Shown here: in pieces, positions 4,117 to 35,821 of the stretch
Numbering within the stretch: position 1 is the stretch's first letter
How the letters are laid out: each line of letters begins with the position of its first letter
Source: Bigelowiella natans CCMP2755
Lineage: Eukaryota; Protista; Cercozoa
Direction of reading: 5' to 3'
Length of the DNA stretch: 41,606 nucleotides
NCBI GenBank assembly: GCA_000320545.1
Contig: ADNK01002724.1
Location: 1 to 41,606 of the forward strand
Notes under the pieces: generated by a model
What the model was told of the DNA's origin: nothing
Seen by the model: the letters and a program-made list of their open reading frames with translations, nothing else
Database searches by the model: none
Position numbers and translations under genes: made by a program

Positions 4117-5232
4117 ATGGGAACCAACAATTCTGCTCAGCGCCCCATTGTGCATCTCGGAGGTACAAGACGACGGTGATGATGATGCCTATGAAGACAA
4201 CGATGATTGTACCAGTGACGAGCATGATGATCATGCTGATGATGGTCATTTAGTTAAATGAACAAGATGATTGTGGTAATGAAGATTATAGAGATGGCGC
4301 ATCGAATCGCACATGAAATATTATTTCGTTGCAGGAACTAACAATGCGGGGAAAACTGCCTTCCTGATTAGACTAGGTCTGAGCAAATTTAACGAGGAGT
4401 ATAAAGGGGAAATCGTCGACAGCATCACGACTACAAGCACTGTGTAAGTGAATTACTATTTACTACAATGAAAATAAAGACGATGATGATAATGATGATA
4501 ACAACGATGGTGATGACGGTATGGCCATGACGGTGGGATTGACAATGTGTGTAATAGTTACATCAATGGCATATTATGTCCCCACTTGTATTGCATTCTT
4601 CAAATATAACTCTATTGCGCACCCGACAGTACATTGTGGCCATGTGAGAACAACGATGATAGGCATTATAACAATGACAACGATGAAAACTTATGATGAC
4701 GACGATGGCAACGATAATGATAATAACGATGCCAATGAAATACATATGCAGCGGGACAAATAGAGAGGAGACGACACTTAAAGGCGTGAGGGTAGCTATG
4801 GTGGAAAGATCAGGAGGATTGAAGGCATACGGGCTATATCGATACATTAATGATCCCAATACGCCGAAGATGCTCGTATATATAGTCGACAGCAAGACCC
4901 CATCTCCAAATGAGAAGAATCTGATGACAAATACAAAATTACTGTTCCGCTACATCGTTGGGGACGAAACGATCAGTTGTGGGGCAGATAAGAATCTAGT
5001 ACCGTGTGACCTGTCCGCTGACGTTCCAATATTAGTTCTGGCGAATAAGCAAGATTTAGAGGGGGGCTTTACAGCATCTCAGGTGGCTGACCATTTAGGC
5101 CTTCGGGAGTATATGGCCTCCAAGTTCCCAGGTAGAGAGTGGGCATGTTTGCCGCTGAGCTTGAAGACTGGTGAAGGGCTGGACGGGGTTGTGAATTGGA
5201 TATCATCCCATGTCGGCAGAAAGACAAGATGA
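4117..5232 (+). CDS. Divergent ARF/ARL-family small GTPase (exons 4117-4162, 4335-4443, 4752-5232)
   Basis: MGTNNS myristoylation-type start, P-loop GTNNAGKT, switch I TSTVGTNREE, G4 ILVLANKQDL, G5 SLKTGEGLDGVVNWI. Splice phases are consistent; G3 is degenerate (VERSGG). Confidence 0.85.
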
Positions 5233-5840
5233 CGCACTGCGAAACAACACAGCATGCCGCCAAAAAGCGTGATCGATGTCTAGATGTGTAGTAATAGCAT
5301 GACGGAAAAACAAACGAACCGACACGCTCACAATCCGTTTACAATGCAATGGGCTGGTCACGTGTGCATGCGAGAGTGCAACGTATATGTTCATGAAGCG
5401 AAGTGTCATTTATTTATTTGTGTTTTCTGCGCTTTGACGGTGCAATGAATGTGCGCACCACACGCGCGTCTGCTCTCCATCACTAGATCCACAACGTGCA
5501 TGTATGCATGGGCGTCTGTCTTGGGTTGTTCCACAACTTTGCTGCAAGTGATCGAGCAGTTTTCTTGGCCGACCGTGCAACAAAAATCCAATTCTTTTGT
5601 TGACTTTCACAAGCAAAATGCATTCGGACATGGCGCGCACAACGCAGCAACGTGACGTGCCATTTCAGATTCTGCATCACATTAGACAAACACATCAGCG
5701 CTGATTGCCATCATTCAGTGATGATGATCGCATTGCTCCTTTCATTATAGACAACGTATTGCAATGTGTACATTATATAGATCACATTACTATAATAATT
5801 ATGTCTAATATTTTTAAGTCGGATGCAACAAAATGAATCA

Positions 5841-6857
5841 TCAATATCCACCATTGCCATTGCTGGTTCTCTTCTCAGCGCTGCTGCCGATTTTCTGTTG
5901 GAAAGCCCAGCACAACGCATCCAAAATTCTAGTTTCATCCCTAGACCTTGCTGACGATGCCGACGACGATTGTGAGGAGCGTGCGTGATCGTGTCGCCGT
6001 GTATTGCTGCCATACTTGTTAATCCAGTGCCCCAGTATTTGCTTCACTTGCTCTCTTATTCGCTCCAAAACCGCTAAATCGGCCTCGTTTTCGAGCTCGA
6101 AGTAAATCCAATCTTCGACGCCTAGAAACAGCCTACGCCTCTTATTCCCCTGCGTGCAATGCTAGGAAAAAAGGTAGAGTGGTGAAGGCGGAGCGGTGAT
6201 TCGAAACGACGAGTTGCCGCATGTTAATGACACCCGAAATAATAATGCAAATGGTTGAATGTGTTAATACTTAAAACACGTAATTTCTAAACCGAGAAGT
6301 AAGGTACCGGCAAGTACACATTAATTTACAAACAAATTCGGACGATTCCTAAGAAACCAACCAACTTTGCTCTCACACAGATGCGGTGTTAATGCGTCGG
6401 AAAAGTCGAAACTAAGAAATCCCCCCTGCTACCCCTTTCTTTCCCAGTGCGATGCTGCTTGTAGTTGCGCTGTGCTCGCTAATGAGTGCGAGCCGCCAAC
6501 ACGACAGATGACCGTGTCATCCGATAACACTCACCGTTACGAATACAGCTAAGAATGGTTTCATTATTTTTCACCAATACCTTGTATTTTCCATCCCCGT
6601 GCCTTCCACTGCTGCCGTTTCCTTGTTCGCTCTTTCTCAGAACAAGTTCCCAGCGGCCTCGATATTTTTCGAGGAGGAAGAGGTCCTCGTGACGCTCAAT
6701 CCACTGCCGTAATCTTCCCATGCCTGAGAGTTATTTCACATCCAACGGCGCATCAGCATCTCACCAAACTGAGCTAGAGCTTTCCCAGTGTTCGTTTCGT
6801 CTATGTTTGTTAGTGCCAAACCAAATGTATGCACGCATGAAAGATTACTATCTACTA

Positions 6858-6897
<40 letters not shown>

Positions 6898-6944
6898 CGT
6901 GACTCTCGACAACAAGATAGCACATATAAACACACACACGCACG

Positions 6945-6976
<32 letters not shown>

Positions 6977-7200
6977 CACCAAAGACACCAAAGACAGACG
7001 CCATTATGACTGATAGTAGCGCATGTTCATACGCGCTCTTAGTTCGGGTAGTGTGCGTCTCATCAGCGATTGCAGTCGTGCCATCGGATATCGTCCTATG
7101 ATATTGTTTAAAACCCATTTCAAACATATTGTTTCCCCCACACATGTTTTGTGCATATATTCGCATGTGTGAGTATGCGTTCAGATCTTGGTTTTCAGAG

Positions 7201-7238
<38 letters not shown>

Positions 7239-7915
7239 CCTACAATCACTCGCTCTACTCATCTATACGCCTAACCGTTATTGGCCTCGCACATCTGCCT
7301 CACGAAGGCGACAACGTCCCCATCTTCCGTTCCCTGTGCTAATCGCCCACCATCATCCTCGTCGTTCTGCTAAATAATCACAAGCATCGAAAATGCGTGT
7401 GATGCGCTTTGCTGCAGTGCAGCGTACATAGGAAATTGACGAGGAAAAAGGAAGGCGCATTACCCTATCGCTGGGAGAAAACGACCTCATCTTGCACCCG
7501 ACTCTAGAAAATGGGGGGTAGGTTAGAAAGGAGGAGTGACCAGAGGCGTGCAAAATGCACCGCCAAAGCACGCACAGCCGCATGAGGCACTGCTTCGAGG
7601 AGTGTAGAGAATAGTATACGTTTGCAATACGACTGAATTGTGATATTGTAGCTCATAGCGAAGCTTGTTGAGATCATGTAAAAGTCGCCATGCAAGCTGT
7701 TTATTCTCCTATGCTATCTCCCCCCCTCCCCCCCATCTCCCAAGCCTTACCCCCCCCCAAAGATGAAAAGCGGCAAGGGCGAAACTTCGGTCGTGTCATA
7801 GATGAATACCCCTCCCTGACACAAATGGCATTACATCAAAAGTAAGAAAACATCTGGGAAGAGGAGGAGGGGGCGTTGTTGATAACACAATATTACATAC
7901 ACGCTAAATTACACG

Positions 7916-7949
<34 letters not shown>

Positions 7950-10919
7950 TCTGTATATATATATATATATATATACATATGTGTTTGTGTGTGGCAAGCG
8001 AGTTTCTATCGACTATTATCCCCGTTTGAAAGGCTCTAATCCAATCACAACACGAATTGCACACATGATGCCCGAAATCGGAACGCTACTTCATCTAGCC
8101 CTCAGCGCCCTCTTTTCTGCCTCACACCTAGGGAAGAGAATGGCCACTACCTCTGTCTTAACCTTCTCAAAGTACACAGCCCAGCGATGCGTCCAGTACT
8201 CGCTCCCCCATTCCTTGCTATTCACACTAGAGGGGTGCAGCTTCACGAGTCCTTTTTGGGGGAGGGGAGGGGGGGGGGGGGGGGTACGGAAGCAATTGTT
8301 AAATAGCGTCTGTGGTGGGACTTCTTTTCCAAAGAAAAACCACGACACTGACGGCTCCTATAACCATGCGAAACCGACCTGTTTCACTGTGCTTTGAGAC
8401 GAACTTGGAAGACCTCTTCCTCGGATCTATCCGTACCATGTTCGGGTACAGCCCCGCGACGAGGCATGCGTGGACAACCTCCAAGATGACAAAGCAAACA
8501 CACGCACACGCACATGCACGCACACGCTCAGATCGTCGTGGGAAATGGTTCCCAAACGGCCAAAGCTACCTCCAAATATCGCCAGGGAAAAAAAAAGGAA
8601 AATAACAGGACGAAAACAATGCGATGAGACGCAGTGCGGAGCTCTCAGGCCATGCACGAGGGAGGCTAAATCGTTGGCGGATTGATGATGAAAGCGGCGT
8701 TTTGTCATTGAGTTTTGGCTGTTCCATGCCATGCTAATCCAAGCACCTGCCAAGAATGAGCGTGGCGGTCTTCAAACACGTCGATGCGTGGCCTCAACGA
8801 AGAAGAGAAGGAGGAGTAGCGAGAGGGATCGATCTGTGCACATGTGAGGATGCAGTTCGTCTTAATGCGGCGCGGAAGAGATACGGGAAGCAGTAGAATT
8901 TTCTCCTCCAGTTGATAATCTGCCGAACCCCCCCCCCCCCTTCTTCTAAATATGATGCGTGTAGGTGATAATAGAAAAAGAAGGACATTGGTTGTACTAT
9001 TTACAATCCATTTTCTTCTTGTTTTTCCTTGCTTTGAATGTAGTACAAGGGCCAAAGGCCACGTTGCAAAATAGCGCCTCTACGTGTGCTATGGCGTCTA
9101 CCCAACCATACCAAATCGGCGTCTTTGAGGAGCTCAGCATATTGCTCCCTCATTTGCTCGATCATACGCATTGTGCCTTGGAGAAACGACGATCGCCACC
9201 AGCAAGAGAAAGCGTGGAGGGGGAGGGCCGTTGTGAGGCAGGGGAAAGAGGAGAGATAATGAGAAAGATAATGAGAAGGAAAGAGAAAATTAGGTGGTGA
9301 TGCGGCCATCAGAACAAGTCGATATATGCGAAGAAAGATCGGAAAATTCCTGAGGATGACACTGAGGAGGAGGGGGAAGAATGGACTCGCAACCTCCTTT
9401 CAGGAAGTTTTTCCTTGCGAAATCCGCCCCGTAACCACGCCTCTCCGCAGCCCTCCACGCGTTGAAGGCTTCTAAATACCTGTTGCGTAGGCAAAATAGA
9501 ATAAATATTCATCGGCTACCAGCTCTTAATCGGCCATATATTTGAAGATCTTATCAAGACTTACGCGTAATGGTCGGAGGTCTTCCCGCGAGCGAACTTT
9601 CGCTGATTATATAACAATATGTAATGTACAAATATATATATATATATATATATATATTACATATGTATACGTGTGATTAAGCGGTTAGAAGAAAGAGCGC
9701 CCCCCCCCCTCCCCTATCCCCCTGCCGCTGTACACCTTTGCTTGATCGGCCTCGAAGCGCTTGTCGATCGGCACGTAAAACGGCGTCCTGTGCGATAAAA
9801 AGAAGATGGGCGCGCAGGTGGGAGCAGCAGCGGCGTCGCCCCATTTGATGAGCGAGAGCTCTTGCGTGTATATGATGAGTTGCGTACGTCGGAGGAGTAG
9901 CAGCACCACCTGTAGCTGAGAATAGCTGTGATCGTGAGCATTGGGCTCAAACATCCGAATAAGCATGCGAATACTAGTGCCTGGCGGTCAGATAAGGAAG
10001 ACAACATAACCAACACTCAAACGGTGTGTATGCTTTATGCTGTTCCAGTCGTACGCTTGGATGGTGTTCTCCATAATCAGCAGCATCATTCATCACCATC
10101 ATCATCATCAATATCACCGCCACCGCCATTATCGTCACCATTCTCCTCGCCGTTATGACCACCCATATCATCGTCAGCATTTGCACTCCGCTACTTGTAA
10201 CACCAGGCTTCCCCACCCCCCACCTTGCCGATTTTCGGGTCCATGGGCAGCTTCGCGAGGTGCTCTCCCAGAACGGTAAGACTTTCATCTCGCTCATCCA
10301 ACGCCTTATCAAAAATAAGATAAACGATAGAGAAAACGGGATTTGGTGGAGGGCGCGCGCGCGGGGGGGGGGGGGAGGCAGTGTGTGCGCCAATGATGTT
10401 GCACCGCGACAGAGATCATGCCCATTGTAAAAAGCGCGTCTCAGCGAGAAAATCCCTTTGCTAACACGCCGACCGACTCTAAAATTCGGAGACATGTTGT
10501 GTTTTGTGCAGGGAGCTGTATAGCGGGAGACCCGTACCCGCACCACATCTCACACCTGGATGGCGCAAAGGGTGGTGATGGCATTGGCCAAAGATAGATC
10601 CGAGGGAGGGGTCAGTACACGCTTCAGGAACTCTGCGACACCTCCACAGCCTGTCATGTATTTGTCTAAAATATCAGTTTCGTCTTGCAGCAAATCCCTC
10701 ATTTCATCATCTTTTTATTATCCTCACTAGTTGATGTACTGTTCAAATAGTTCTCTAACCCCCCCCTCCCCCCCCCCCGCGCGCGCGCGCACTCTACACA
10801 TCAAATACCAGGGGCGGCAAGATTGAGCTTCCGAACCTGTGATTACGTGTGGATGCGTTTCGCTGATATCAGCTTCGAGTAGGAATTGAATATGAAAACG
10901 TTTGCGTGCTTGCATGTAG

Positions 10920-10954
<35 letters not shown>

Positions 10955-11427
10955 GAGTCATTGTTAGTAGCACCTGCAAGCATAGCTGCTCTAGTGGGGT
11001 GCGTTGTATCTCTGGTAGCTGGTAAGCGCTGAGCTCACGAAGTCTCCACGAAGGAAACAGGTGATAGCATATCTGAATACGAGAAAACAGCACAATCTTT
11101 CAATAACGCTCTCTACCCCCTTCCTCTCTCTTTCTTTCTTTCTTTCTCTTGTCTTTCCTTTGCCCAGAAAACATCTGGCACGTTCAAACTACCGGCGCAA
11201 CCATGGCCTCTTCCTTTTCTCGAGATCATCATCATTATCTCTTATCATCATTATCTCCTATCATCATCATCAGTGAGATAGTAGCATAACGCTGGTTTTT
11301 ACCCCCTTCTGCACCCTTCCCGCCCTCCCCCTCCTTTGCAGCGCCGATGCACGGGATATCTGAGCAGTACAAGACAGAAACATGAAAGCATGAAAGTATA
11401 GTCATCTCAAACCGCACAAATACAAAT

Positions 11428-11458
<31 letters not shown>

Positions 11459-11999
11459 GAAAGCCACGCACCCAAGCTGTGAGAAGGCAAGAGACGTTGT
11501 TCTCCGCGTCGTACGTCTTTTCTCGGTGCTTTCCGCAGTCGATCACGCACGTTATGTCATCGATCGTGATGGAGCTCTCAGCGATGTTTGTGGCGACCAC
11601 GACCTTCAAAGCAGCAGTAGCAGCAGTAGCACCGTATGATGATAATGACGGCGGCGACGATAATGGTGATAAATGAAAACAAATTCCCTCCAAATTATCG
11701 AACGATACGTGGTCCTCCCCCCCTCGACCCCCCCCCCCCCCCCACCCCCCGCTATCCTCTTCCATATTCCTACATGATCTTGATCAAACGTCAATAACAA
11801 CAACAACAACAACGACAATATCGATGGTGCGAATGATTCATACATCGTGGTGCTATACACGCATCTCACCTTCCTTAGATTCTTTGGAGCTGGAGAAAAT
11901 ACCTAAAATCATTGCCAGAGTCGAATATCCGTGTTTGCATTGTCCACGCCTTTCTCTCTTGAATGCGAATGACCCCGTGTGTCCCTCCCCCCCTCCGCT

Positions 12000-12045
<46 letters not shown>

Positions 12046-12078
12046 TTCTCTCCATCTTTCGCTCTCTCTCTTTCATGA

Positions 12079-12117
<39 letters not shown>

Positions 12118-12934
12118 CTTCAACACTCATCATGCGGCACATTGATTTGGGAAACTGACCCTTTGTTGCTCCTTACTTGCCATCATTCCATGTAAAGGAA
12201 GCACCTATACAACAACAACAACAACAAGAAAAAGAGGAAGAAGAAGAAGGATGGAGATGATATCTGATGATGGTATATGACATTGGAACATATCACAACA
12301 CATGACCAGAGTGCCAGAATCAAATACTGTACAAATATATTAAATTGCAGATTTTCTGCTGATCATTCTCTCCCCCCCCCCCCCTCTCCTCCTCCTGCTC
12401 CTACTTCTCCTCGTTATGATCATCATCATCATCATTATCATCATCATCATCATCATCGTGTAAAATCGATATATCGGTGCGATCCAACCAGCAGCGTGGA
12501 ACTGACGCGAGGATGGAGGGACTTCTGCAGGCCTTTGCACACCTACCGACACCATGCGACAACAAGATAAAAGCTAAGCTATAATCATGCCGACGATATA
12601 TCTCTTGAAGGCCTATCATCCCCCTCTCCCCCTCCCCATCACTATCGTCATCGCTATCATCATCATCATTATCGTCATTATCATCATCAAAATCGTTGAC
12701 TTTGGTAATATCGTCCCATCCCGGAAGGAAGACGAGAATGGCGCCCATTGGACCGGCTTTCGTGCTCTCTGTCTGCTCGGTCGCGCTCTCGCTAATGCCG
12801 TCACTGCTGCGAAGGTGAATCTGCTCGATAAGCCCGACGATGAGCGAGTAGAGAACCTCCTCCTCCCCTGTCGTGTTATGGAGAATGAGACTCTTCCTCG
12901 CCGCACATATTGTATACAGATACACCCTCACATG

Positions 12935-12973
<39 letters not shown>

Positions 12974-13181
12974 GTGCGGGGGGGGGAGGAGCGCCTCCCT
13001 CAGCTGTGACATTGCAAAATGAAGAATGGAAAGGCGAACAACATAGCAATAAGAATCGTCGAAAGCACAGGCCCGGAGCACGTGTAGCAAACCATTTAGC
13101 GCCTCTTCTTCAAAGGCCAGAGTCCTCTCGATCACATCCCGACTGAACCCACCTTTTCCCACAAGTATCATTAAAATAAAG

Positions 13182-13223
<42 letters not shown>

Positions 13224-13620
13224 AACGAGTTGTCCAGCAGCGAGGAGGAGGAGGAATTGAATATATATGGCGTGCAAAGACTTGCAACAAGCTGTTCATA
13301 CCAGATGAGAGGAGGTTTTCCTTAGCTTCCATCCCCATTGAATTCTTGCCTAAAGTCACATGAGAGAGAGAGAGTAAAGGCCAGCCTAACATCGACGCAT
13401 TGCATATGCTTTGTGAGTTAAAATAATATACGTTTTGATGAAATATATCAATTTATTTTTGCAGATAATTTACCAGTGCTCTTCTCTTCGCCGTCTCCCC
13501 CCTCTTCTTCCTCCACGATCATGCTGCGATTCTCACGTGATGATGACGTAGGAGTCTCATTCTTCCAACGCGGCTTTCCGCGTGGACGCCGACCTCGCCG
13601 TCTTTTCCTAGCAAAACCAC

Positions 13621-13686
<66 letters not shown>

Positions 13687-14851
13687 TATATACAAAACAA
13701 TTACGTATGTATGCTAAGATGTTACGTCAGGTGTCAGTTTGCAGAGTAAAAATGGCATTTCAGACGATATAGCGCTGCAAACGATTCTTGCAGCAAGCGA
13801 GAAAGAACCGAGGAATTTATACATAAAAGCACTAGACAGCACTTCTGAAAGAGGAGCATCTTCATCTGCTACAGCATTGGCCATACTCACTACATGAAAA
13901 AGCGAAAACCTGTCTTTGACGCCTGGTATCGTTGGAAGTTCCACCTTGGCGTCTGAAATGACCTACGTGCACAAAATATATTCACTTCACACCATCAATA
14001 ACATCATCATCATCATCATCATCACCACCACCACCACCATAATCATCATCAGCCTCACCATTATCATCGCCATTATCATCGTCATCATCATCATCATCGT
14101 CATCATCATCATCCAAGAGACGGAGCGAGGCATGTACGCGCATCTACTCATGAAACCCGCTCAAAGCATCATGCAGAAAACATCTAAAATCGGCGGGAAC
14201 AGGGCGGAGGGAGAACAACCTGATAGGCATCTTCAAGGAAGTACTGGGTCACGGGGAATGTGAAGCTGAAAAACCGCACATATAGCACAACGCTAAAATC
14301 ATCATCTGCGCACCACATTTCGAGAAGGACATTATTTATCTTTATCTTCCGTAATGCCGCCGAGCGCCCTCTCCCCCCCCCCCCCCCCCCCCCCCTGTTC
14401 CCTCCTACCGCTTGCTTTTGTAATGTATAATGCCATCCCTTACCCGGGTATGTTGAAAGAAGGCACCCGCCCGATCTTCGAGTGGCTTTCGAAATATTTC
14501 TGCCAGGTGGACAACAACATTATCAGGGGCTTTAAATGAGCTCCTCCCCGGCCATGCCCCAATGCTGCTATTCACTGATTCATCTTTCCGAATAAAAGGG
14601 GGGGGTGAGTGGGTACCGACCTGAAAATCTTTCGCGTTGAGCGTCGCGGACATGAGGATCACCCTGGCATTTTGAAGTAGCATAAACTATCAATATGATT
14701 AAAGCAGGCAAGAATCTTCAACATCTCTCCTCAAACATCAAAATAGCTCCTGTGAAAAGTAGGTGGGGGTGGTGGCCACGATTTTGCGGATGGTCCTTGA
14801 GGAGTGCCAAGTGTGATTGCCGACTCGCAGATAATAACCAAAAAGTATGTG

Positions 14852-14890
<39 letters not shown>

Positions 14891-17800
14891 ATATTAGAGT
14901 CTTGCTCTCGTGGTTGCTTGCGTGAGCGAATTAATGCGTTCAGACTTAAGATCGGGCCGACGGGGCAGCAAATCACGTAGAATTACGAGCAGAAAATCGG
15001 AATCCACGCTTCTCTCATGCACCTGATGACACCGCATATAGTCGTTCGCTTTGCCGCCTTACACAACCGCAGCACGCGGGAGGAGCGGCAAGCAGCTCGA
15101 AGAAGGAGCGATTAGTTCATCATTCGCGACACCTACCTCGTCCAGAATAATGTGGGATACGCTCGAAAGCTCAGGATCGCCCTGCAGCCTCCGGAGCAAG
15201 ATTCCTGTTTTGCAGATGTCATATAACACGTGTCAGTGGTAAAAATGGGTGGTTTGGGCTCTCTCGCGCGTCCCCCCTCCCCCCATTCATTACTACCTTG
15301 CGTGCAGAAAAGGAGCCTCGTGTTGACCGAGAGGCGCGACTCCAAGCGTATTTGATATCCGACAGTGCCACCCACCCTCTCCGCACGCTCGCTAATTATG
15401 CAGCAGCGATTTCGTAGGAAGTCAATGGTACGTGATTCTGCCTAGCTCTATATTCGTCGCTGTTATTATCATCGAAGCTCTCCTCTCTCTCGTCCTTCTT
15501 CTCCTCCTTCTTCTCCTCCTCCTCCTCATCATCATCCTGATCACAATGCACACGTGCTACTGCTGCTATCGTTGTAGTACCTAGCGACGCGCTCTGCTAC
15601 ACTGACCGCGGAGATCCTCCTGGGCTGCGTGCAGATGATGCTGCATCGTGCCCTGGAACAGAGCAGCGCGAATCCAAAAACACATCATTGGTTAGATCGA
15701 TCAATCTCTTCGCTATTTCGCGCTGGAACGCTTTATTGCTGACCCACCCCTTGCCTGCCATGATAGCTTCATCGAGGACGAATTGAGGCACTTGGGTAGT
15801 CTTACCGCATCCGGTCTCCCCCCTGTCGCATTGTCGTGAAGGCAGCGATTTGTGAAAAAATGGCGGCTTAGGATGGCGACGTGTGATGATCAAAGCACGG
15901 CTCTCGGTCGGAAGGAGAGTGGGTGTTCCCCCATTTCCGTGAGAGCTATCTCGCAATCGTTCGTATATATTCAAAAAAAGGTGTGTTTGCTTGTTTTTGT
16001 AATCATTACGATATGACTGTGACTTGATGGGCGCTGATGGTGCTGATAATCTTCTCTGCAGCTTTGAATGATGGAAGTCTGCCAAGGAGCACGTTTGCAC
16101 GGAAGAAGCAAAAATCACGAAGTAGGAAGAAGTGGAAGAGAAATGAGAAAGATAAGATAGGTTGCACAAGGGCGGCTGCCCTATTACACGATCGGCAAGC
16201 TTTTTAGAAAAGGAGGGGGGGGGAAACCATGATAAGCTGAAGCAGAAAGGTGCTATTTTTGCGAGATCAAGAACGAGAAAGAAGACTAACAACTTCGCAA
16301 TAGCGCTTCCGACCAAAGAATGTGATATTTCACCGTCCGCGACCCTAACCCCTTCCCCCCTCCTCAAATCACACGTTCACTCTATTTTTTTCTACTCCTC
16401 TCTACTGAGGTTATGTGACGTATTCCACAAGCGCCCTCACCTTTGTCGCTGGTCCTGCATCCTTCGATATTCCGCATTAAACCGCCGTTTTTCAATCAAC
16501 GAGTCTCTTAGCGCTTTACTCTCCCTGCCCATTTGCTCACCGTCGTCTCCCTCCTTTAAGTGCTTCATCCTATCATATAGCCTATTCTTTCTTTCATTGC
16601 CTCCAAGATCGCCCCATCGACTGCTCTCGAAAGCGGTTGGCCTCTTCTGCTGCCGTTGCTGGGAGAACCGTGAGCCCCCCCTCCCTCCTGCCTCCGAGTT
16701 TTGCTTATTTCTGTATTGCCCTTCTTTCATTGATGCAGGTTGATGCTCTGGTAGGCATGATTCAAGACGTGCGACGATTTCCTCCGAAAGACCGAAGACC
16801 TCAGGCCTGGGGTCCTGTCGGTATTGATGATTGTGCGTGCGTGTGTGTGTGTGAGTGTTTCTGTGAGATTAAGAAGATGTGTAGATTTGGCGACGGAATA
16901 GGCTTATTAGGTCATGCAAACACGCGCGTCGCGTACGTGCGTGCGAGGATGTAGATACCCAAGCATACAAACGCACAACCGTTCACACACAAACACACAC
17001 AGACACACATACACGCGCGCAATTATTTTCCAGAGAGGAGAGAATGAGAGAAACAGAGAGAAAGATCGAATAGGGAGAAGAGGGGAGGTAGGCGTGGAAA
17101 CGACCATCAATAATTGCTGGAGTTTGATGCGGTTTATTTCCTCCTGCGATACTCGGTTTTCAACTGCCTCATTCTGCAAAGCATCGGTGCCATCTGAAAC
17201 CATCTCCTCACCATCAATCTCCCTGATGCTGCTGCTGCTGCTTCTACATGTATTCGCAGAAGAAGCGGGGATACGAATTCCCATTTGCTGCAAAAGCTTC
17301 CTATCATCCTCCTGCTGCCTTCGCCGCTTTTCCTGCTTGTTTTTCTACGGGGTATGGGGAGGCACATTGAGCATATTGGAAAGCAGCAGAAGACATGGAA
17401 CGGGGAAATGCATGGCAGCGCGGAAGGACAAAACACAGCTTCTCATGACATTGCACACGACCCATCTCATCTCCTGCTCCTCCTGAGACAAATCTTCCCG
17501 TTTGCGAAGATGCTTTCTCCAATTATACCCGCCGCCGCCGCCGCCGCGGCCCCCACCACCGCCACCTCGCCGTCTGTCGCCATCTGAACGATTCCATTCA
17601 TTGTTATATGTGCTTTTGAGGGATAGCTCGTGTATTCGCACATTGCCCACCACTTCAGATGACAGCGGCAGATATCAGGCCCAAACTCATGTTTTAGGGC
17701 AAGCGGTGTATTCTCAAAGAGATGGCGGATGCTACATCAAATAAGTACACATCGTGTTGTCGAAACCTGCCCCGTGCCATCGCCCACGGCCCCTGCCCCT

Positions 17801-17951
17801 CCTTCCACCCCGTCTGAGGCCATTATTGAAGCCACGGACCCATCCTAACCATATAGGCAAATCGAAATGTTTAGTGGGAGCGGTTTTGAAACGTCTCTTT
17901 CAATAGAAAGGACAGCGTGGGGGGGGGGGACGGACCTCCACGCCGGCGCAT
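5841..17951 (-). CDS. DEAH-box RNA helicase, DHX36/DHX57/DHX29-like, many exons, RGG-rich N-terminus
   Basis: Motifs occur in order on the minus strand: [130 protein letters not shown]2 ([16 protein letters not shown]), [54 protein letters not shown]; stop at 5841. Start inferred from phase-compatible exons. Confidence 0.9.
6581..7369 (-). other. LOTUS/OST-HTH-like domain within the helicase (exons 7276-7369, 7033-7095, 6765-6800, 6581-6723)
   Basis: Phase-1 GT-AG junctions join to [78 protein letters not shown], which fits the OST-HTH pattern (helix-G-x-hydrophobic helix...(Y/F)G-x-x-x-L-x-x-h-h...D-L-F). Confidence 0.65.
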
Positions 17952-19235: not shown

Positions 19236-22200
19236 TCATCGTCGTCGTCTTCTCTTGGCTCTACTGTTTGGTTTGGTAGGCGCCTTGCTACTCGAAGATG
19301 ACGAGGATGCTACAGCTCCATCTGCATGTTGCAAAACCAACGCACTCTCCTCGTCCGGCAGCAACCATTTCTGCCGAAGTACCCCAGTAAGGATGAGCTC
19401 TTTGTCATAGATTGCATAGCCTAGTCAAATTGTTCATCATATTGGTGAGTCAAAGGAAGACAAGACCATAACAGACACCAACAATCTCTGGACATAAAGA
19501 TGGATTTTGGTCTATTGAAACCATATTGCCCGAAAATTGTGAAAGGACTGTGTTTTCGAGACATGATTATCCCGACCACCAAAACGCAAGCATAGAAAGA
19601 TTTGATTTGAACAAAACATCTGCCGGGTATGTGCACCAGGAGCAAGTTTTTGCTGCAGCTAACATGTCATTACCTAAACGTTGCAGCTTCTTCACCTGCG
19701 TCTTATTAATGTCGTCAACGCATGAGAGTATAAAAGTGTTCTCTGCGAAGGACTTGGGAGCTGATTTCACTATTCTGCCCCCCGCGCAACTCACGATCAA
19801 AGACATCTAAAATAGTAGTACACACGATAATATGAAGAAAATCGAATTGAGAGAAATGCGTCGAAAAGAAAAACAGACCACTCCGGTCAAATAGAGAAAA
19901 CTTACATCGGAAAGTGATGGCAACACACTGGAGGTTTGGAAAAATGTCTTCCCTTCCAAAAATTCCTCTTTGTGAGCTAGCGATTCCAGGAGCTTGAACC
20001 GCCACTTTCTCTCTGCTGCGGAGTCTTTCACCCAATACGGTTCCTGATGTGCGCATTTGGGAGAAATATCTTATTTATCTTAGAAGTCTCATTGAGTTGC
20101 TATTCATCCTCAGGCCATTCGAAGCAAGGACGGCGTCGAACAGGCCTTGCGTAATAACAAACTCAAAAAGAAACAGCGCCCTAGTCGCGTCACACGATAC
20201 TAAGTTCTCATGCCCTCGCAAGTCGAGCTTGCCTGTCTTTACGTGTGCTAACAAGCCTACACACACGCGCACGCGCTCGCCCTCGCATACACACGCACGC
20301 ACAAACACTATGACCTCTTCCAACCATCGGCCCTTCTTATGGCTGTCGTTAATGAACGACGCTTTTACGACGTGGCGGCATGACGAGAGCGCCGCAAGAA
20401 ACTTCTTTGTTCGGCGCACCTTGTCTGTGACGATGTGCGTACACCTTCCTATCTCCCTAACCGAAAACTTCCGAGTAGAAAGAGTAGCAGTGGAAAATGG
20501 AAAGACATGACGAAAAGATAAAGTAAGTACCACGGTGGGGGAATGGTGTACTCTATCTCAACAGCAGTTGCTGTGCTTCCCTCACACAACTCTTTCCAAC
20601 ATATCATATCGACGACGATGGAATATTGCCGATTGTGCAAACCTTCGAAATCACGGATCCTCCAATGCTACTCACTTTCTTCTCCAACTAGCCAACAACA
20701 CAACCAGAAAAACAGACAGGACGAGTCAGAAGGACTACACCAGGGCTTGTAGGGCATTGCATAATACCTTTCCTTTCTCTTCGTCTGTGAGGCCGGTTAA
20801 CAGGAACACGGGGGGGGAACGCTGCACTTTTGCCGGCTCTTCATCTTCCTCCTCCTGCTCTATGTTCTCCGCTGCTGCCGAAGAATTTCGTTTGTCTTGC
20901 TGGCTATTAGCACCGCTGCGACTGCTGCTTCTTCCATTGCTACGACTGCTTCTTCTCCTTGCCCGTTTGCTGTTGTCATTGCTACTGCTACTAGCGGTTG
21001 TTGCAGTGGTGGTGGCGACGACGACAGGGCTGCTCGGTTTTTTCCTCTTCGACGACTGACGGGACGAAGCAGAGCGAGAGGAACGACGCGAAGAGGATGA
21101 CGAGGACGGAGGCAAAGGACTAGAAACCTTCTCTTCGGCAGGGGTGCCAGCTTTCTCGATTCCTTCTGTCTGCTTTTTGTCTCCATTTCCATCTCCTACG
21201 TTTTTCGCAGTGGATGCAGCCGATATCGCCGCCGAGGACGGTGCAGGCTTCTCCTGCTGTCTACTCCTTCGGGAGTAAGATCTTGTTGCTCGGCGTCTCT
21301 TAGTCGCGGGCTGTTGCTGCCCTTCATCGTCCTGTTTCTGTGCCCTGCTGCCACCCTCCTTGCCCTTCTGCAGTGAGGTTGTCGGAGAAGTGATGACGTC
21401 CGCCCACTTACTATCGCCCTCAACCTCTTTATTCCTCTACACGCACATATCACACACAATAGGACACAAGCAACGTGCCATGTAAATTCGTGTATAACCG
21501 ACAGAATGGTCGTTAAGCTGCTGAAATATAAGGTTCACGTCCCTCGACAGAACTCAGCTGTCGCGGAACGTGACTCGCCGGAAATTCAAGGTAAATTGCC
21601 CGTTTCTTCTCCTCCGTACACCTTTGGAATTCTTTCATTTCAAAGGTGTAATATAATTTGGTTGGAAATTTGTGCTAATGATCCCTTCACCATAACTCAC
21701 ATGCAAGCAAGATCATTTGATATTCTTGCCCTGCCCCCCCATCTCTCTTACTACTACCTTCCGCGCACTACGACGGCGGCTAGGACGAGGAATTTTAGCT
21801 GCTGGTGACCGTGAAGCGTTCTCTCCGCCGCCTTGCCGTTGAGCATTGTTCTCGTTAGTATGTTGATCGTCAACTGAGGTTGGTTGTGGTGGTGGTGCTG
21901 TTGCGACTGCAGCTGTGTCCTGTCTCGTCCTTGTCCGTGTTCTCCTTGTGGATGCTGCTCGCGTCTTCGTTGTCGTTGTCTTTCTTTTTGTTGTCTTTTT
22001 TCCATATTCCTTCTTCTGTTGTTTTTTCTTTGTTTGAACCTCTTCCTCCTGCCCCTCGTCTTTCTCCTCAGGAGCTGCTTTCAGCTTTGCGGCCTTGGGT
22101 TTTGTCTTCTTAGATAATATTCTATTTTCTTTTTTTTTGACTTCCTCTTCGGCTTTTGCCCCCATTTTTTTTTCTTCAGCCTCTTTTCTCGTATTTTCCT

Positions 22201-23261
22201 CGGCCTCCTTCTTGGCCTTTTGTTCTGCCTCTTTCCTTGCATTCTCCTCGGCCTTTTCTCTTTCTTCCTGTTCTTTCTTTGCCTTTTTCTTCTCCACCTC
22301 CTCTCTTCTGGCTTTATCTTCCGCCTCTTTCTTGAGTCTCTCCTCCGTCTCTCTTCTGGCTTTATCTTCTGCCTCTTTCTGGGCTCTCTCCTCCGCCTCT
22401 TTCCTTTCCTTTTCCTCTGCCTCTCTTCTACCTTTTTCTTTCGCCCCTTTCTTGGCTCTCTTCTCGGCCTCTTTCCGTTCATTTTCTTCGGCTTCTTCCT
22501 TTGCTCTGTCCTCCGCCTCTTTCTTCTTCTTTTCTTCGGCTTCTTTCTCTACGTTTCTTTCCTCCGCTTCTTTTTTCCTCTTTTCCTCAGCAGCCTTCTT
22601 ATTTTGGAAAATGAAAAAAAAGAATCCCATCGACATTATCATATATACAGTTCGTCAAAACATATTGTAAAACGAAACGGACTCACTACTTTTCTATGAG
22701 AAATTATCTCCTCTTTCGTGTTGTCTTCTTCTTCTTCTTCTTCTTCTTCTTCTTCTTCTTCTTTTCGTTCTTCTTGGTTTCCTGCCTCAGTGTCTGTCTG
22801 CGGAGTCCCAGCTACCACCTCTTCCTCCGCCCCTTCCTCATCTTCATCAGTGCCCGCAACGAAAGATTCTTCCTCGTCCGCAACTTAATATAACACACAC
22901 GCACACACACACACATAAACATACATAGCAACACGTAATGATTTTTTGTTGTTGATACTACGCATAGGTGAGTGCGCATGAACGTACGGCGAAATGATTT
23001 GAGAGAGAAGACACCTTCATCTTTCTTCGTGTCTCCAACAACTTCACTTGACATTTTCCTCCCCTCAATATTTTCAGGATGGCCTCCTCGTCGTTGTTGC
23101 TGTTGCTCAGAATTTGCGCCCCCATCTAAACGCCCACTAAATTCTAAATCGTTGTATACGGGACTCTCTCCCCCGGCACCTTTCTCGTCACCCTAATACA
23201 GCACATCAAAGATTGGAGGAGAGGAAGCATTCGGTCGTGTGTCTGCTTTCACTGCGTGTGG

Positions 23262-23297
<36 letters not shown>

Positions 23298-23717
23298 CGT
23301 GTGTCTGTTTTAAAAAATAGGAGCAATGATTATGTCCCACATTCTCCCCCCGGATACTCGGAAAATCGACAAAATAATCACATTTTTTCAACAATTGAGT
23401 GTTTCGAATCTTCTTCAAATTGGTCAATCTAATGTACCCCACTCACAGTAGCGGAATCCCCAGCTGCCGAGAAAAGCATGGTACGGGCGAGCGTTGCACC
23501 AGGGGTCGCTGATTGCGGAAGACTTTTATCGAGAGAACTTCCACTTCTACTCCCCCCAATAGGAGCGGGTTGGGTTGCGGACTTTCGCGATGAGGGGGGA
23601 AGAGAGGTTGGACAAGAGGAAGATGCCGTTGATTCGTACCTACATTGCAAACATTTAAGTTAAGAGAATACATATGTGTATTTACATATATTTATATACC
23701 TACAATATAAATATTTA

Positions 23718-23753
<36 letters not shown>

Positions 23754-25590
23754 ATTAGTTTATATAGAGTATACGTATGTAACTATGCATAGGTGTAGAT
23801 ACAATATAATCACTGAGAATCGCAATAAGTAATCACAAAGATACTGATATTTTTGTTGAACACTCACTCAAGCGTCGGAGCCATAACGGCCTGGCTTCCC
23901 CCTTTCTTGCTCGCTCTCGCTTCGTTGCCCCGGCCTTTTTTAGCCTCCTCGTTGCCTTTTCCTTCTTCCTGTTCATCTTTCTCCTTTTTGCGTTGGTCGT
24001 TCATCATGGGGTCGTCCTCATAGTAGGGCTGCGTCACTGCCATTTCGTCAACCTCTTGCTCCTTCTCCTGCACACGGTGTAGGTGTTTGTTGTGACCGAT
24101 TATATCATTGAGGTCATTCAAAATCGATTCCACCATCTCATAGGAATCACTATGCTCATGGGCGATTTCGATCATGATTTGCACACAATGTGCCATGGAC
24201 AAGCAATATGCCTTGGAACGAGGCAAAAATCCAAAACCACACACCTCGTTTCCTCCCCGTCGGTTGACATCCTCATAATCATCTGCGCCCCCTCCCCCGT
24301 AAGCCTGTGTTGCTTCCACTTGTAACGACGCCTGGCGAAAGGCGACGGGCGAAGCATGCACAACAGACGACGACGGTGTTTAAAATCGAAATAACATATT
24401 GAAGTATTGATAAAAATCGCTGCCTCATCAAGGGCACGTTGTTTGCAACGACCTTTTCGCCTTCTGTAGCAATATCATTGGCATTGTCGTCCCCCTCCCC
24501 CTTCTTCCCCTCTTCATCACCCCCCACGTCATAGAGCTGCGTCCCCGGAATCGCTGCCTATTGGATGATATAGTATACGTCATTGCGATTGTCTATGGGC
24601 AATTCGGCCTCTTGTACTTTGCCACGAGGTAGTTTCTCGGTTTATTGACTCTGCACAATTACCCCCTCTCCTCCTCCTTATACAAAGCGATGTTTGTTCG
24701 GATTGACTGTTTTGTCGTGAGAAAGCACCCGGTATTTGTGCATTACAAGAGTTTGGAGGCACTTATGACAGCCAAAAAAACTTAGTAAACAGTATACTTT
24801 TTTTTGTTTCCAAATAAAAATTTTAAGGATTTCCTCACCATTTTGCTGTCTTGGTCGGATAGATCGGGACCGAGATTCTCCTGAGGAAGAATAAAAGAAG
24901 ACGTATGGTTGCAGCTCTATTGGTTACACTGAATATATGATGATACTTACTCATAATATATGAAGAAATGAAGAAATGGGTAAGTGAGGGAATGCGAAAT
25001 GAAGTCGCAAGTACGCTGCAACTAGTCATGCATATCAGAAAGACTGAAGAAAAATTGGAAATTACCTGAGAAGCATACGGAATCGTCTCCTCAATCCCCT
25101 CCCCCCCTGCAGCACTTTTCATTGGCGGGGCGGCAGCAACGCCGTCATCATCGATGTCGTCGTCATCATACCTGCTCATTGCCCCCCATCGTCACCAATG
25201 GCGGAGAAACAAACGTGGATTTTTAAGATAGCTCAAAGATATATCGCAACGACAGGAACGCAGGAAAGAGCGCCCCATTCTGTAGTAATGCAGACGACGA
25301 GTATATAATTTCTTTCTACCTGAATGTGGCCTCGAGAGAAGTTCCCCCCCCTCCTTTAGCTTTATCCTGTGGTGATGATATCGGTGACGCTGTAGCGACA
25401 GCAGGAGGAGAGGGCCGCGCGGCGACCTTGTCGCAGTTAGTCTTCTTTTTCTCCTCCTTCTTAGATGGTGGGGAGCAGGAAGTCCTAGCAGCTTTGGAAG
25501 CACCAACTGCTGCAGTGATAGCAGCAGTGCTGTAATCAGGCGATGATGATCCCATGAGAGCTTTGCTTTGGTCGTAGTCGTACCTGGGCA

Positions 25591-27235: not shown

Positions 27236-27432
27236 TTGAGTGATGCGACATCCACAATGTCATGTTTTTTAATTGAATTTAAGGCCATTTTGGCACAAAA
27301 TCAAACCCGATGCCATTGCCATGAGCACCCACCTCCTTTCCGCCTCCAGGCACTCTGCTAGGAGGTAGCCTCTGCACGCACAGGCAGAGATGTAGCGGCG
27401 ATAGCAGTGAGGTGATAGGCGGTGAGTGAGAG
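27236..27432. promoter_or_regulatory. Short (~200 bp) bidirectional promoter between MDC1-like and GGCT genes
   Basis: Head-to-head ATGs at 27235 (-) and 27433 (+); TGCGACA at 27244. Confidence 0.5.
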
Positions 27433-28302
27433 ATGAAAAACTTGGCTGCGGTGGCAGCGACATGTGTGGTGCTCCTCTTGGAATATGCGCCGGTGATTAG
27501 GGCAGGAAGAGCGCACTTTCCGACCTTGGCACGCTTGGAAGGCCTGAATGCCCGTAAACCCCGCTGCTCTCGTGCGTTGACTTCGGTTTCTGTGGAGAAA
27601 GTTAAATACTTTGCCTATGGAGCTAACATGGATCCTAAAGTGATGAAAAGACGCGGTGTGCAACTGGAAGATGGAAGCTCTATTCCAGGGATTCTGAGAG
27701 ATCATTCGCTATGCTTTAACCATCAAGGATGTTACGCGAACATCGTTCCTCGATCCGACAGTTTAGCGGCAAGAATCAACAAATTCGACGAGATCATTGG
27801 CCAGTCGCCAAGCGACGTGCATGGAGTAATCTACTTACTGGACCCTGATGACATTAAAAAACTTGCAAAATATGAGGGTGGTTATGTGATAAGCAAGTGT
27901 CGTGTCGAGAAGTACCATCATCATGACGGCGGCACAATGTCGACTAAAGGTGATCTTTCTAACAAGCCTAGCCAGGCCGGAAGCGGCATTTTTGTAGATT
28001 CGGTCATTGTCTTTCAGTCCAGCAAATGGTTCGCTCTCAGAAGGAGGGGTCGCGTACATGGAGACCGCCCATCTGCAATGGGGCTCGTGCCCCGTGAACG
28101 CTATAAGCGCGTCCTGTGTGTTGGTGCAAAGTTTCATGGGCTGGACCGAGGATACCAAGAGTGGTTACGGGCTTTGCCCACTTTAAGTGACGAAGACTTC
28201 AGAGACTTAGGCCGCTATTACTACACAGCTAACTCGTTGCTAACACTAGTTGTATTCATTGGGGTAGGAATTGCCGGGTTCTTTACTTTCCTTAATTCGT
28301 GA
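27433..28302 (+). CDS. Gamma-glutamylcyclotransferase (GGCT/AIG2-like fold), N-terminal signal + transit-like peptide, C-terminal TM anchor, intronless
   Basis: YFAYGANM signature, VHGVIYLL...LAKYEGGY with catalytic-type Glu, PRERYKRVLCVGAKFHGLDRGYQEWL. Hydrophobic N-terminus followed by an R/S/A-rich segment; hydrophobic C-terminus LLTLVVFIGVGIAGFFTFL. Confidence 0.85.
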   Translation: MKNLAAVAATCVVLLLEYAPVIRAGRAHFPTLARLEGLNARKPRCSRALTSVSVEKVKYFAYGANMDPKVMKRRGVQLEDGSSIPGILRDHSLCFNHQGCYANIVPRSDSLAARINKFDEIIGQSPSDVHGVIYLLDPDDIKKLAKYEGGYVISKCRVEKYHHHDGGTMSTKGDLSNKPSQAGSGIFVDSVIVFQSSKWFALRRRGRVHGDRPSAMGLVPRERYKRVLCVGAKFHGLDRGYQEWLRALPTLSDEDFRDLGRYYYTANSLLTLVVFIGVGIAGFFTFLNS

Positions 28303-29447: not shown

Positions 29448-31256
29448 CTACTGTGCTTCAAGGGAGTCCCGGTTGAAGCATTCGGCTGAATTCGCCCATT
29501 GGTTGATTATTGTGGTTGGTGTATTATCAGGATGCGTAATAAGAAGGTGCTGGTACACCGAGTCCCAGTTTTTGATGAGCGTTGAAAGTGGCACATCATT
29601 CTTTGGAAGGAAAGCTCTATCGATCTTCTCCTTAAACCCAAAGAAGTACTCAATTCTCGCTAGTTCAACATCGGTATTGCTACAAAGTTCTCCAAACTCG
29701 ACATTAAGTACTCTGTAGTCCACAATTTTGTTGAGGAACTTCTCTCGTACTTGCTGCTGTTGCGCGATCCAAGAAATACAATCATCAAAGAATTTTTCAG
29801 GAATAACCCACCCGTCAGTAGAGTATTTTCCAGACTTCCTCTGATATTCCTCAAAAATAGAGTAACAATGGCGAAGTCGATTATATCGTGAGAAACTCAC
29901 AATTTTCACGTCTCGTGATTCCACGTATGCCGCAACGTCATCTTCCCGATCCATTGGAATTTCATTAATCATCCACTCGAATCCCAAATACGCCTTAGGC
30001 ACACCTGGAGGTCCCCTTTAAAAATGAATTCATAATACATTAATGCATAATGTATCAGCAATCAGCAATCAGAAAGTAATATAACATACAACATTGATTT
30101 ACCAGAAAAGCATATCTAAAAGCTCTGCAGATTTGTTTGAGTGCATGTTCACATCCTCAGGAAGGGTGTGCGTTGGGTTCCAAGCTGACACACAATCTGA
30201 TAGTTGTGAATAGGTGGGGAAACAACTGTCTTTGTGTGTTAGAACTACGGAATGGTTGGAGAGAAGGGAGTGCAGCATTTCCTCCCCAGAATTCTGAATG
30301 GAAAGGAGGAAGTATTTGATATAGTATTTTGGAGGTTGCGATTCCACTTCTTGCAGAACCGTGGTATTCGTTTCCCTCTGCTCTTCTTCGTTCTTTGGAG
30401 GTTTACTACTTAAAAATTCAGCTTCATTCATATACTTGAGACCAAGTTCACGAGAGATTGTCTCAAACAAATCTACAGCTTCCTCTACGATTGAATTAAC
30501 CGGTCGTAGGGGATCGGTCACTTCGGATGATTCTTGTTCCTCAAACTCTGTAACTCCTGATGTTGGTTCCACATTAGAGTTTTCACTTTGTATTGCGGAC
30601 AAAGGCGTCGTTGGAATCTGGCTTGCAATAGCTGCTGCTTGCTGGTTAGTAATATTGTGTCCTTCGTCATCACTGCTTTGCTTAAAATCAGTATTAGGAT
30701 CATCTAATTGATCTCTTTGAACTTCAGCAACCATCGAGGGTGATTCAGTATCGTAATCCCAGGGCTCTATCTCTGAAATAGATTCGCTAATATGTGGCTT
30801 GGTCTCGATCCCAGTTTCTCTCACAGAGGCTTCGCTTTCAATATTCTGTTTAGCTCCAACGTCGAACAACTGCAATTGTTCATTTTGAGGCTTGACAATG
30901 GTGCTGTCAATAGACCCACTCTCAACGCCTTCTGTAAGTGAATCAGAGTTCAATTTTTCTTGGTTCACATTAGTGCTTAGCATTAAATTTCTTTTCGAAA
31001 GAACGGTAGGTTCATTGATGAAGGTGTCTTGCATCGCTCGAGATGCAGCAATAGCCTCCTCGGTGGCGTCATCGCCGAGCGGTACTAGAGGAGGAACAGT
31101 TACATTGTGGCTTGATTCAAATTGGAGATAGAAAGGATTTACGTCCTCCATCTTAGTTGCTTCTCTGGGGACACGCATCCATACTCCATGTGCTGGGAAG
31201 CCCAGCAGAATGAGCGTCGCCGCAATTGCCACAGGAAGAGTAGAAACGGGAGCCAT
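29448..31256 (-). CDS. Secretory-pathway protein with acidic S/T/E-rich stalk and C-terminal Stf0/NodH-like sulfotransferase fold (exons 30103-31256, 29448-30015)
   Basis: Signal peptide MAPVSTLPVAIAATLILLGFPAHG. YFLLSIQNSGEEMLHSLLSNH resembles the 5'-PSB RSGS..L..LL..HP motif; also LGFEWM, VKIVSFSRYNRLRHCYS (3'-PB-like), LNVEFGELCSNTDVELARIEYFFG and LSTLIKNWDSV. A phase-2 intron joins the two ORFs. Confidence 0.7.
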
Positions 31257-31569
31257 TAGCTCGAATGGAATACAAAAGGCAATTCAGCGCTGGGGCAACA
31301 AAGTGCAGCACAAAGATCTGATTAAAAAAAAGAGAGCAATTTATGATGGAAAAAAGGCCTGAAAACCTGAACTACGACAGCAAATTGCACCACACATCTG
31401 TCAAAAATCGCCCGTGTTGACTTGATGTTATTTCGTGTCGGATGGTGCGTGTGAAATGAAACTGCGAGCATCCATTCTAGCATTGATGTTTTGTCCCATG
31501 ATCTTTTCAGCTGCTCCAATGGAAACACGTGTTTCTTTCTTTCCATCTGTTTTGTTTGTTGTGACTGTT

Positions 31570-34046: not shown

Positions 34047-35821
34047 ATGCGATGTTCGGGAAAAATTGTTAATCATGCACTAAATCGAACAATGGGTCCC
34101 CACCTGGCAAAATTGAATTTTGAATTCCCAAATAGAACGAGCTCTCGAACATGATGGTGTTGTTTTTTTAAACTGTACAGGCGCAGGGTTGGCGCGACGA
34201 AAACCGATTGATGCTAGTGATAGGAGTATCATTAAACATATTAATTCCGTGACGTCCACATCAGAGACTGAGCAGGATGAAAAGATACAGAATCCACTGT
34301 TATACTATAGAGAAAAGGTCCTCATCCTTGGAGCATCCCAATGCGGAAAGTCCACAATCTTTAAACAAATGCTACAGCTCTATGGTACTGAAAAGTTTGG
34401 CGACAACAAATTTGACAGGTCTAGTCTGATCGAGATTCTAGAAGATCATTTCGTTCATTGGTTTAGTTCTCTCCTTAAATACCCTGCAATATTTGCAAAC
34501 ATTCCTAGTGGAAACAAATACGTTGGAACTATTAGTAGAAGGGAGCTGTACGAAGTATTAGTTCCTTTTAAAATGGGAAAGTGCATAGTAAATATCGTAC
34601 ATGAATATGATTGCTGGAGAAGTATTTATCACTTAAGCCCTGAGATGGAAAAGTTGAGCGCTGAAACCCTCGAATGTCTTATGGATATGAAGATGCAATC
34701 GAGTGAGAAGGTGCACCTTTGCAAGAACAAATTAGAGAAATTATGGAATTGTCCAGCCATACAGCACGCCTATGAAAGACAAACGGATCCAGGAATAGCC
34801 GAAACGATGCCATATTTCATGGAGAAAGTTTCAAAGATCTTAAACCCGTCTTATCTGCCTACATTCGAAGATTTTTTGAAAGATTGCACTCGAACTAGTG
34901 GACTAGTAGAGGCCAGAATTAGAGATGGCGACATCGAATACGTGACATTCGATTTAGGTGGTGCACGAAGTGAGCGCCGGAAATGGATCCATTGGTAACG
35001 CTAGTTTTTCACATAGTTGCTTCTGCTTATCAAATTGGAAAGATATTACGAATGAATAATCACTCCTCTTAATATTTAAGTGTTTCAGATACTTCGTACA
35101 TAATATTTGTTTCGGCTATTAGTGCATACAATCGGGTTACAGCATTGCTTGCCTTTACATAGCATACTACAAATATGGCTTACTAATTAATACTATTTAG
35201 ACTCTGTTTGAAGACACAAATTCGAATTCGCTCGTAGAGGTTCCAAAAAGTGCTTGTTTGGCGGTATTTGACTAAGATGTCCTTTTTACAGGATATAGAT
35301 CTTTTTTCTGATGTGATCGGTAGCCCTTGGAGTCAAAATGTGCAAGTAATGCTAGTTTTAAATAAGATTGACATATTCAAGGAAAAAATTAAAAGGTAAG
35401 TAGTTGAGAAATGAAACATTGATATTCAAAAACTATGCAGCAACAAATAGTGAGTATTGTAATTCCCAGGGTTCCCATTACAGTGTGTCCCGCCTTGAAA
35501 GGTTATAAAGGGATTCAAACAGGTTAGTAAAAATCTATTATATATTTCTCACACATTACCGCACATTATAAACTGTACATGCTCAGCGGTGTATGCTTTT
35601 ATGCTAAGATTACGAGGCATCATTGCAACATATCAAGGAAAGATTCTTAGAAGTGGCGATGAAATGGGTTCTCCTTTTATTTCATCACCCATTATCAAAA
35701 CTTCAGTTGTTCTCATAATATTTAACAGGATCGAAACTGTGCTCAAAGAATTAAATTAGTTACATTGTGTTCTTTCGATTCGAAAGCCGTTAAGGATGCT
35801 TTTGAATCTTTGCGCAGATGA
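34047..35821 (+). CDS. Heterotrimeric G-protein alpha subunit, catalytically divergent; 5' end uncertain (exons ...-34994, 35081-35135, 35201-35239, 35292-35395, 35470-35522, 35609-35667, 35729-35821)
   Basis: KVLILGASQCGKSTIFKQM, LWNCPAIQHAYER, YLPTFEDFLKDCTRTSGLVE, FDLGGARSERRKWIHC, IIFVSAISAYNRTLFED, LVLNKIDIFKEKI, LCSFDS; six phase-consistent GT-AG introns; stop at 35819-35821. Confidence 0.92.

Follow-up and report, generated by a model that had tools for sequence, protein, structure and literature searches.

The helicase gene and its inserted exons

We analyzed a stretch of 41,606 nucleotides (here, the window) that forms positions 1 to 41,606 of contig ADNK01002724.1 from the rhizarian Bigelowiella natans. 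Its minus strand carries a gene for a DHX36-like DEAH/RHA helicase, and near the 3' end of this gene a set of small exons encodes a real, spliced, conserved, and unannotated insert that is LOTUS/Egalitarian-like. Both parts, helicase and domain, are of known kinds. The features needed first are listed here; the insert exons are defined by RNA joints, translation, and a structure model.

5841..17951, minus strand: DHX36-like DEAH/RHA helicase gene, modeled with 42 exons and 1280 amino acids (gene model, tblastn, RNA joints below 11800)
7751..7815, minus strand: exon closing the OB subdomain, GGVFIYD...PLFIFGG (RNA joints, Pfam, translation)
7464..7503, minus strand: insert exon 1, a low-confidence linker
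7276..7369, minus strand: insert exon 2, an acidic linker and helix 1
7033..7095, minus strand: insert exon 3, strand 1, helix 2, and the start of an extra helix
6581..6723, minus strand: insert exon 4, helix 3, a two-strand wing, and a linker
5841..6161, minus strand: last exon, which re-enters the helicase C-terminal extension with the GVEDWIYF strand, two helices, and the stop (RNA joints, structure model)

The gene model was built from homology and splice signals, with a relative (P0003) as the tblastn query, and has GT-AG boundaries in 41 of 41 introns and an open frame of 1280 codons. The model has two RecA domains with helicase motifs I, II, III, and VI intact ([24 protein letters not shown]), its first 811 amino acids score 771 bits against the family profile, and the HA2 exons were located by tblastn. 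The OB_NTP_bind domain is matched by Pfam at 58.6 bits in an MMETSP transcript open reading frame (P0002). The original prediction called the protein DHX36-like, and DHX36 is indeed the nearest solved structure; the label marks likeness, not orthology. For exons upstream of 11800 the prediction uses only homology and splice signals, and the RNA joints cover only the part of the gene below 11800.

For RNA support, four public runs were mapped to 5400-11800: three contig runs, from three studies, and one raw-read run. The runs had been tagged as RNA by guess, and they do contain spliced RNA, because their joints skip introns. Fifteen of the 22 joints were listed; 13 of these are GT-AG joints of the helicase gene present in all three contig runs, and two are repeat artifacts. 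The raw-read run, with 80 reads, almost no depth across the insert, and no joints, is too shallow to count.

Four insert exons separate the PLFIFGG exon from the [10 protein letters not shown] exon. All five of their junctions are GT-AG joints found in each of the three contig runs, so the splicing of these exons into the helicase mRNA holds up, with one junction more than the four predicted. A single 1734-nt contig (5738-11073) links the insert exons to helicase-core exons; in it, the 262 nt between the ends at 8150 and 6722 are exactly the exons of 65, 40, 94, and 63 nt. The segment amounts to 126 amino acids by translation (122 in P0002), and the corresponding bovine DHX36 segment, read from alignments, is about 11 residues. 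The net gain is thus about 115 amino acids, well below the roughly 200 first estimated. The site is a short hairpin in DHX36, after the OB subdomain, as the alignments confirm. The stretch 6724-6800 was considered as part of the domain and rejected as intronic per the RNA joints.

A search with the last insert exon returns the B. natans JGI model P0001 and P0002. P0002 contains all four insert exons in frame; P0001 begins late and skips exon 7095-7033, by which helix 2 is lost. The last exon of the gene has two in-frame acceptors 12 nt apart (window 6149-6161, minus strand). The acceptor at 6161 is used by contigs of three runs, and P0002 lacks the four residues concerned.

Predicted fold of the inserted domain

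The folded part of the insert occupies one further feature, spread over three exons:

6638..7324, minus strand: LOTUS/Egalitarian-like winged-helix domain, residues 1090-1155 of the gene model and 167-232 of P0002 (AlphaFold2 fold, structural matches, sub-cut-off WH_Egal matches, family alignment)

In the AlphaFold2 model, the domain comprises 66-70 amino acids, rather than the 80 or so first proposed, with three helices and a two-strand wing at a predicted local distance difference test (pLDDT) score of 87-96. An extra helix (199-205) sits between helix 2 and helix 3, and a helical insert at that place is a LOTUS/OST-HTH feature (PMC2848206). The best non-helicase structural matches of the modeled domain are Egalitarian and LOTUS domains, which are enriched at the top of the ranking; no Oskar or bacterial OST-HTH structure is among the 50 matches listed. 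Among the listed matches of a Foldseek search against PDB there are helicases alone, and the domain sequence has no match in PDB. The best ESM Atlas scores are 0.76-0.78, one of them to an Egalitarian winged-helix cluster and all below the lead threshold of 0.9; the same search with the P0003 domain gave no usable match.

Sequence profiles place the domain less firmly. Pfam OST-HTH (PF12872) does not match the insert at E≤10, nor does it match in the searched relatives. The only recurring Pfam match is WH_Egal (PF23713), with E=0.0065 and 17.4 bits for the window domain and E of 0.01-0.04 in three relatives; all scores (13.3-17.4 bits) lie below the curated cut-off of 27, and most relatives match nothing at the insert. 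The Ghxph motif is not present in register: the window reads R-M-G-R-L, with the Gly two residues before the helix-3 Leu, not four. A Ghxph regular expression matches 1 of 28 rows at that place (P0009), and its remaining matches sit at the start of helix 2. Of the LOTUS/OST-HTH identity first proposed, the predicted fold stands and the Pfam and motif signatures do not. We conclude that the inserted domain has a predicted LOTUS/Egalitarian-type winged-helix fold, that neither Pfam nor Ghxph makes it a canonical OST-HTH, and that it is nearer the Egalitarian type by sequence. It is improbable that the domain is a generic winged helix of no LOTUS or Egalitarian descent, possibly DNA binding, since the top-ranked LOTUS/Egalitarian rows, the extra helix, and the independent weak WH_Egal matches all agree against it.

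After the wing, the model continues into a low-confidence linker (residues 237-252, pLDDT below 50) and then into helicase strands. It has no C-terminal helix after the wing, a provisional result because the extension in Oskar is itself disordered until bound. This bears on the proposal that the insert folds back on RecA2 and activates the ATPase of its own chain, the cis equivalent of what extended LOTUS domains do to Vasa in trans. Such stimulation has a precedent (PMC5458760), and covalent tethering could replace a weak interface. However, Vasa binding and stimulation require the C-terminal helix (PMC5458760), which has no counterpart in the model, only 8-25 residues separate the domain from the next strand in most relatives, and Vasa is a DEAD-box, not a DEAH, enzyme. 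We consider cis stimulation highly unlikely, and we rejected Vasa-type (eLOTUS) activation, which the original prediction mentions, as the principal explanation.

Relatives and spread of the insert

Searched against 1.84 billion representatives, a profile of P0002 and one relative finds 962 proteins at E≤0.001. Twenty-six of the best 150 listed of these carry the domain as a C-terminal insert, besides the JGI model of the window; the carriers were picked out by a local iterative hidden Markov model. Word-based protein searches returned only one or two relatives each, and a metagenome contig scan gave no confirmed locus. Counting the two queries, there are 28 insert rows, and in 26 of them the domain is followed within 8-52 residues by a W-x-x-F/Y strand pattern; in 10 insert-free proteins with a measurable loop, the distance from the end of the OB subdomain to that strand is 18-25 residues. 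The upstream linker spans 16-94 amino acids across relatives. At 60% identity the 29 domains form 21 groups, and their median pairwise identity is 28%.

Among 20 clusters looked up, one belongs to the stramenopile Aplanochytrium stocchinoi, and the others are mostly metagenome proteins, so the subfamily spans at least two branches of SAR (stramenopiles, alveolates, and rhizarians), namely Rhizaria and Stramenopiles. Database labels for relatives read “DHX36” or “Helicase-associated domain-containing protein.” On this sequence evidence, the insert is the mark of a conserved subfamily of DHX36-like helicases in protists. Within the reach of the search, the architecture has no broad spread into animals, plants, or fungi.

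Trees were built on core columns without the insert, with rows (75, 40, and 32) selected on length and with a profile of insert-bearing proteins, so that the outgroups are a partial sample. In the first, all 11 insert rows fall in a clade of 18 with support of 98/93; in the second, all 7 fall in a clade of 8 with an SH-aLRT (approximate likelihood-ratio) support of 98. In the third, also on core columns, a group of 12 takes in all 10 insert rows, with the window protein; its support of 92/89 falls short of the star threshold of the tool. Among the other seven rows of the 18-row clade, three end before the insert site, one ends inside an apparent helix 1, and three lack the domain. These three members, together with the unstructured insertions that also occur in the hairpin loop, are what one would expect if the insert were a passenger that a permissive loop tolerates, with little functional effect. 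This is very unlikely, however, since the conserved core and basic surface are kept across Rhizaria and Stramenopiles in domains only 14-40% identical to the window copy, while the linkers vary freely.

The domain type also appears outside the subfamily. P0066 and P0173 are proteins of ∼1085 amino acids with 7-9 tandem WH_Egal-like repeats and a low-complexity tail, in which no enzyme domain was found; the summed score of the P0066 repeats passes WH_Egal. Compared by hhalign with the insert family, the P0066 repeats reach 97.3%, against ≤1.3% for reversed and 30 shuffled controls, though P0066 was itself found with a profile built in this analysis. P0076, which lies outside the insert clade, is another DEAH helicase and has a probable copy of the domain at its N terminus (residues 22-92). 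The copy scores 23 bits with a profile leaving P0076 out, which is not significant at library scale, and is probably a second, independent fusion of the same domain type to a DEAH helicase.

G-quadruplex recognition elements of DHX36

Two further features concern how DHX36 recognizes G-quadruplexes (G4).

17462..17951, minus strand: predicted first three exons, with an RGG-rich N terminus and a YNWRKHL motif, no DHX36-specific motif (homology and splice prediction)
8379..8478, minus strand: exon encoding PRKRSSK, a basic OB loop that aligns to KKRK of the DHX36 OI loop (alignment)

The original prediction saw no DHX36-specific G4-binding motif (DSM), and the pattern that we take to represent the DSM is absent from the window model, whose N terminus is predicted, as well as from six of six insert relatives with at least 170 residues before the core. 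It occurs in seven stored proteins, none of them insert bearing, and six of the seven form their own clade. The backbone among the DSM clade, the insert clade, and the DHX29/57 group is unresolved. The aromatic motif YNWRKHL follows the RGG box (window 17462-17583, minus strand) and recurs in P0007 and P0009 and, more loosely, in P0022; it is a candidate stand-in for the DSM. In the OI loop, PRKRSSK aligns to LGKKRKMVK of DHX36 with basic residues kept, and that loop of DHX36 contacts the G4 groove (PMC12621225). An Arg/Gly-rich segment stands at the position of the RecA2-G4 loop, and its sequence differs from that of DHX36.

Proposed function

We think it probable that the insert, held on two flexible linkers in the post-OB hairpin, is a tethered RNA-binding module that grips structured RNA. 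The helicase core would clamp a 3' single-stranded tail and translocate 3' to 5', like other DEAH enzymes, and the insert would bind folded RNA 5' of the loaded tail. Candidate contacts are the basic and polar residues conserved in the S191, K195, R196, R202, R209, and K223 columns, which belong to helix 2, the extra helix, helix 3, and the wing. Such a grip could raise affinity and select substrates, as the DSM does in DHX36. In related helicases, dsRBD, R3H, or YTH domains fill such a substrate-binding role.

The target of such a module is mildly likely to be G4 or G-rich RNA, which minimal LOTUS domains bind, with exceptions (PMC7498356). Duplex stems are a serious possibility, a little short of likely; Egalitarian domains bind double-stranded RNA, with helix 2 entering duplex minor grooves (PMC13186709). 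The stronger proposal, that this protist DHX36-like branch swapped the DSM helix for a LOTUS-type winged helix in the C-terminal hairpin as a G4 sensor, is tentative and on balance doubtful. The intronic G runs, originally offered as a hint at the substrate, carry no weight, because G4 motifs occur elsewhere in the window and the targets of an enzyme acting in trans need not be its own transcript. We count 7 G4 motifs on the sense strand of the 12.1-kb gene versus 12 on both strands of the other 29.5 kb; for runs of at least five G the counts are 31 on the sense strand of the gene and, in the remainder, 29 on one strand and 40 on the other.

Alternatively, the insert might be mainly a protein-binding or localization module (for dimerization or for granule or adaptor binding), as the LOTUS domains of Oskar and MARF1 are, with no part in RNA selection. 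Protein-binding roles have been shown for LOTUS domains (PMC5458760), and a docking module would suit the long, variable upstream linkers. However, the most conserved exposed, non-core columns of the domain are basic, and minimal LOTUS domains are reported to have bound RNA ancestrally (PMC7498356), which makes this alternative unlikely. Of 24 full-length copies of the domain, 22 carry a net positive charge.

It is known that LOTUS-type domains cooperate with helicases in trans and that they bind G4 or duplex RNA; how they act on helicase substrates is debated. A natural single-chain DEAH-LOTUS enzyme allows direct tests of the role of the domain and of G4 unwinding without a DSM. The subfamily has been missed by annotation: its inserted domain lies under every Pfam cut-off, and the JGI model loses one domain exon. 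Accessory domains are common in the DEAH group, which limits the surprise. If a LOTUS-type G4 sensor does replace the DSM, DEAH motors would have two structural ways of recognizing G4, and a LOTUS domain and a helicase would be naturally joined in one chain. The probable P0076 fusion, at the N terminus where a DSM would sit, would make the LOTUS-DEAH pairing recurrent.

Other features of the window

Within the helicase introns (5841-17951), 17 of 23 runs of at least five G fall in the 5' half and 8 of 12 C runs in the 3' half, a skew that may reflect splicing enhancers or intron-end pairing. The remainder of the window holds the following.

4795-5226, plus strand: frame resembling an Arf-family GTPase (Pfam Arf, E 1.4e-8) and convergent with the helicase 3' end; its N-terminal P-loop part was not seen in frame, and it is perhaps degenerate
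∼19300-24400, minus strand: upstream gene with long Lys/Glu-rich repeats and a C-terminal BRCT (RTT107_BRCT_5, E 6.7e-10)
27430-28299, plus strand: long frame matching AIG2-like/GGACT (E 1e-5)
30102-31283, minus strand: 394-codon frame with no Pfam match
34117-34995, plus strand: long frame matching a G-protein alpha subunit (E 9.8e-33)

Comparison with known systems

In full-text searches, judged mostly from abstracts, we found no LOTUS, OST-HTH, or Egalitarian domain inside a DEAH helicase. The available part of PMC2848206, with its supplement, gives OST-HTH architectures that include no DEAH fusion and one Nematostella protein that joins a superfamily-1 helicase, an LK nuclease, and OST-HTH. 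As the mark of a protist subfamily, the fusion is not a one-off. DHX9, DHX29, DHX57, and YTHDC2 likewise join a DEAH core to added domains that bind substrates or partners (UBA, RWD, and DSRM were detected); in those helicases the added domains are mostly terminal or in RecA2, and none compared has a winged helix in the post-OB hairpin.

Compared with DHX36/RHAU, the DEAH-box G4 resolvase, the window protein lacks the DSM pattern and carries a folded domain in a post-OB hairpin lengthened by ∼115 residues, and the insert proteins form a clade of their own, apart from DSM-bearing proteins. Its likeness to the Egalitarian winged helix (PF23713) is structural, at ∼10% sequence identity and with a profile score under the cut-off; it is a single copy inside a helicase, whereas Egalitarian has tandem copies before an exonuclease-like domain. 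Unlike the minimal LOTUS/OST-HTH domains of MARF1, TDRD5, TDRD7, and Tejas, it has neither a PF12872 match nor an in-register Ghxph. What it shares with LOTUS/OST-HTH is the architecture of the predicted fold: a three-helix winged helix-turn-helix with a two-strand wing and a helix between helix 2 and helix 3.
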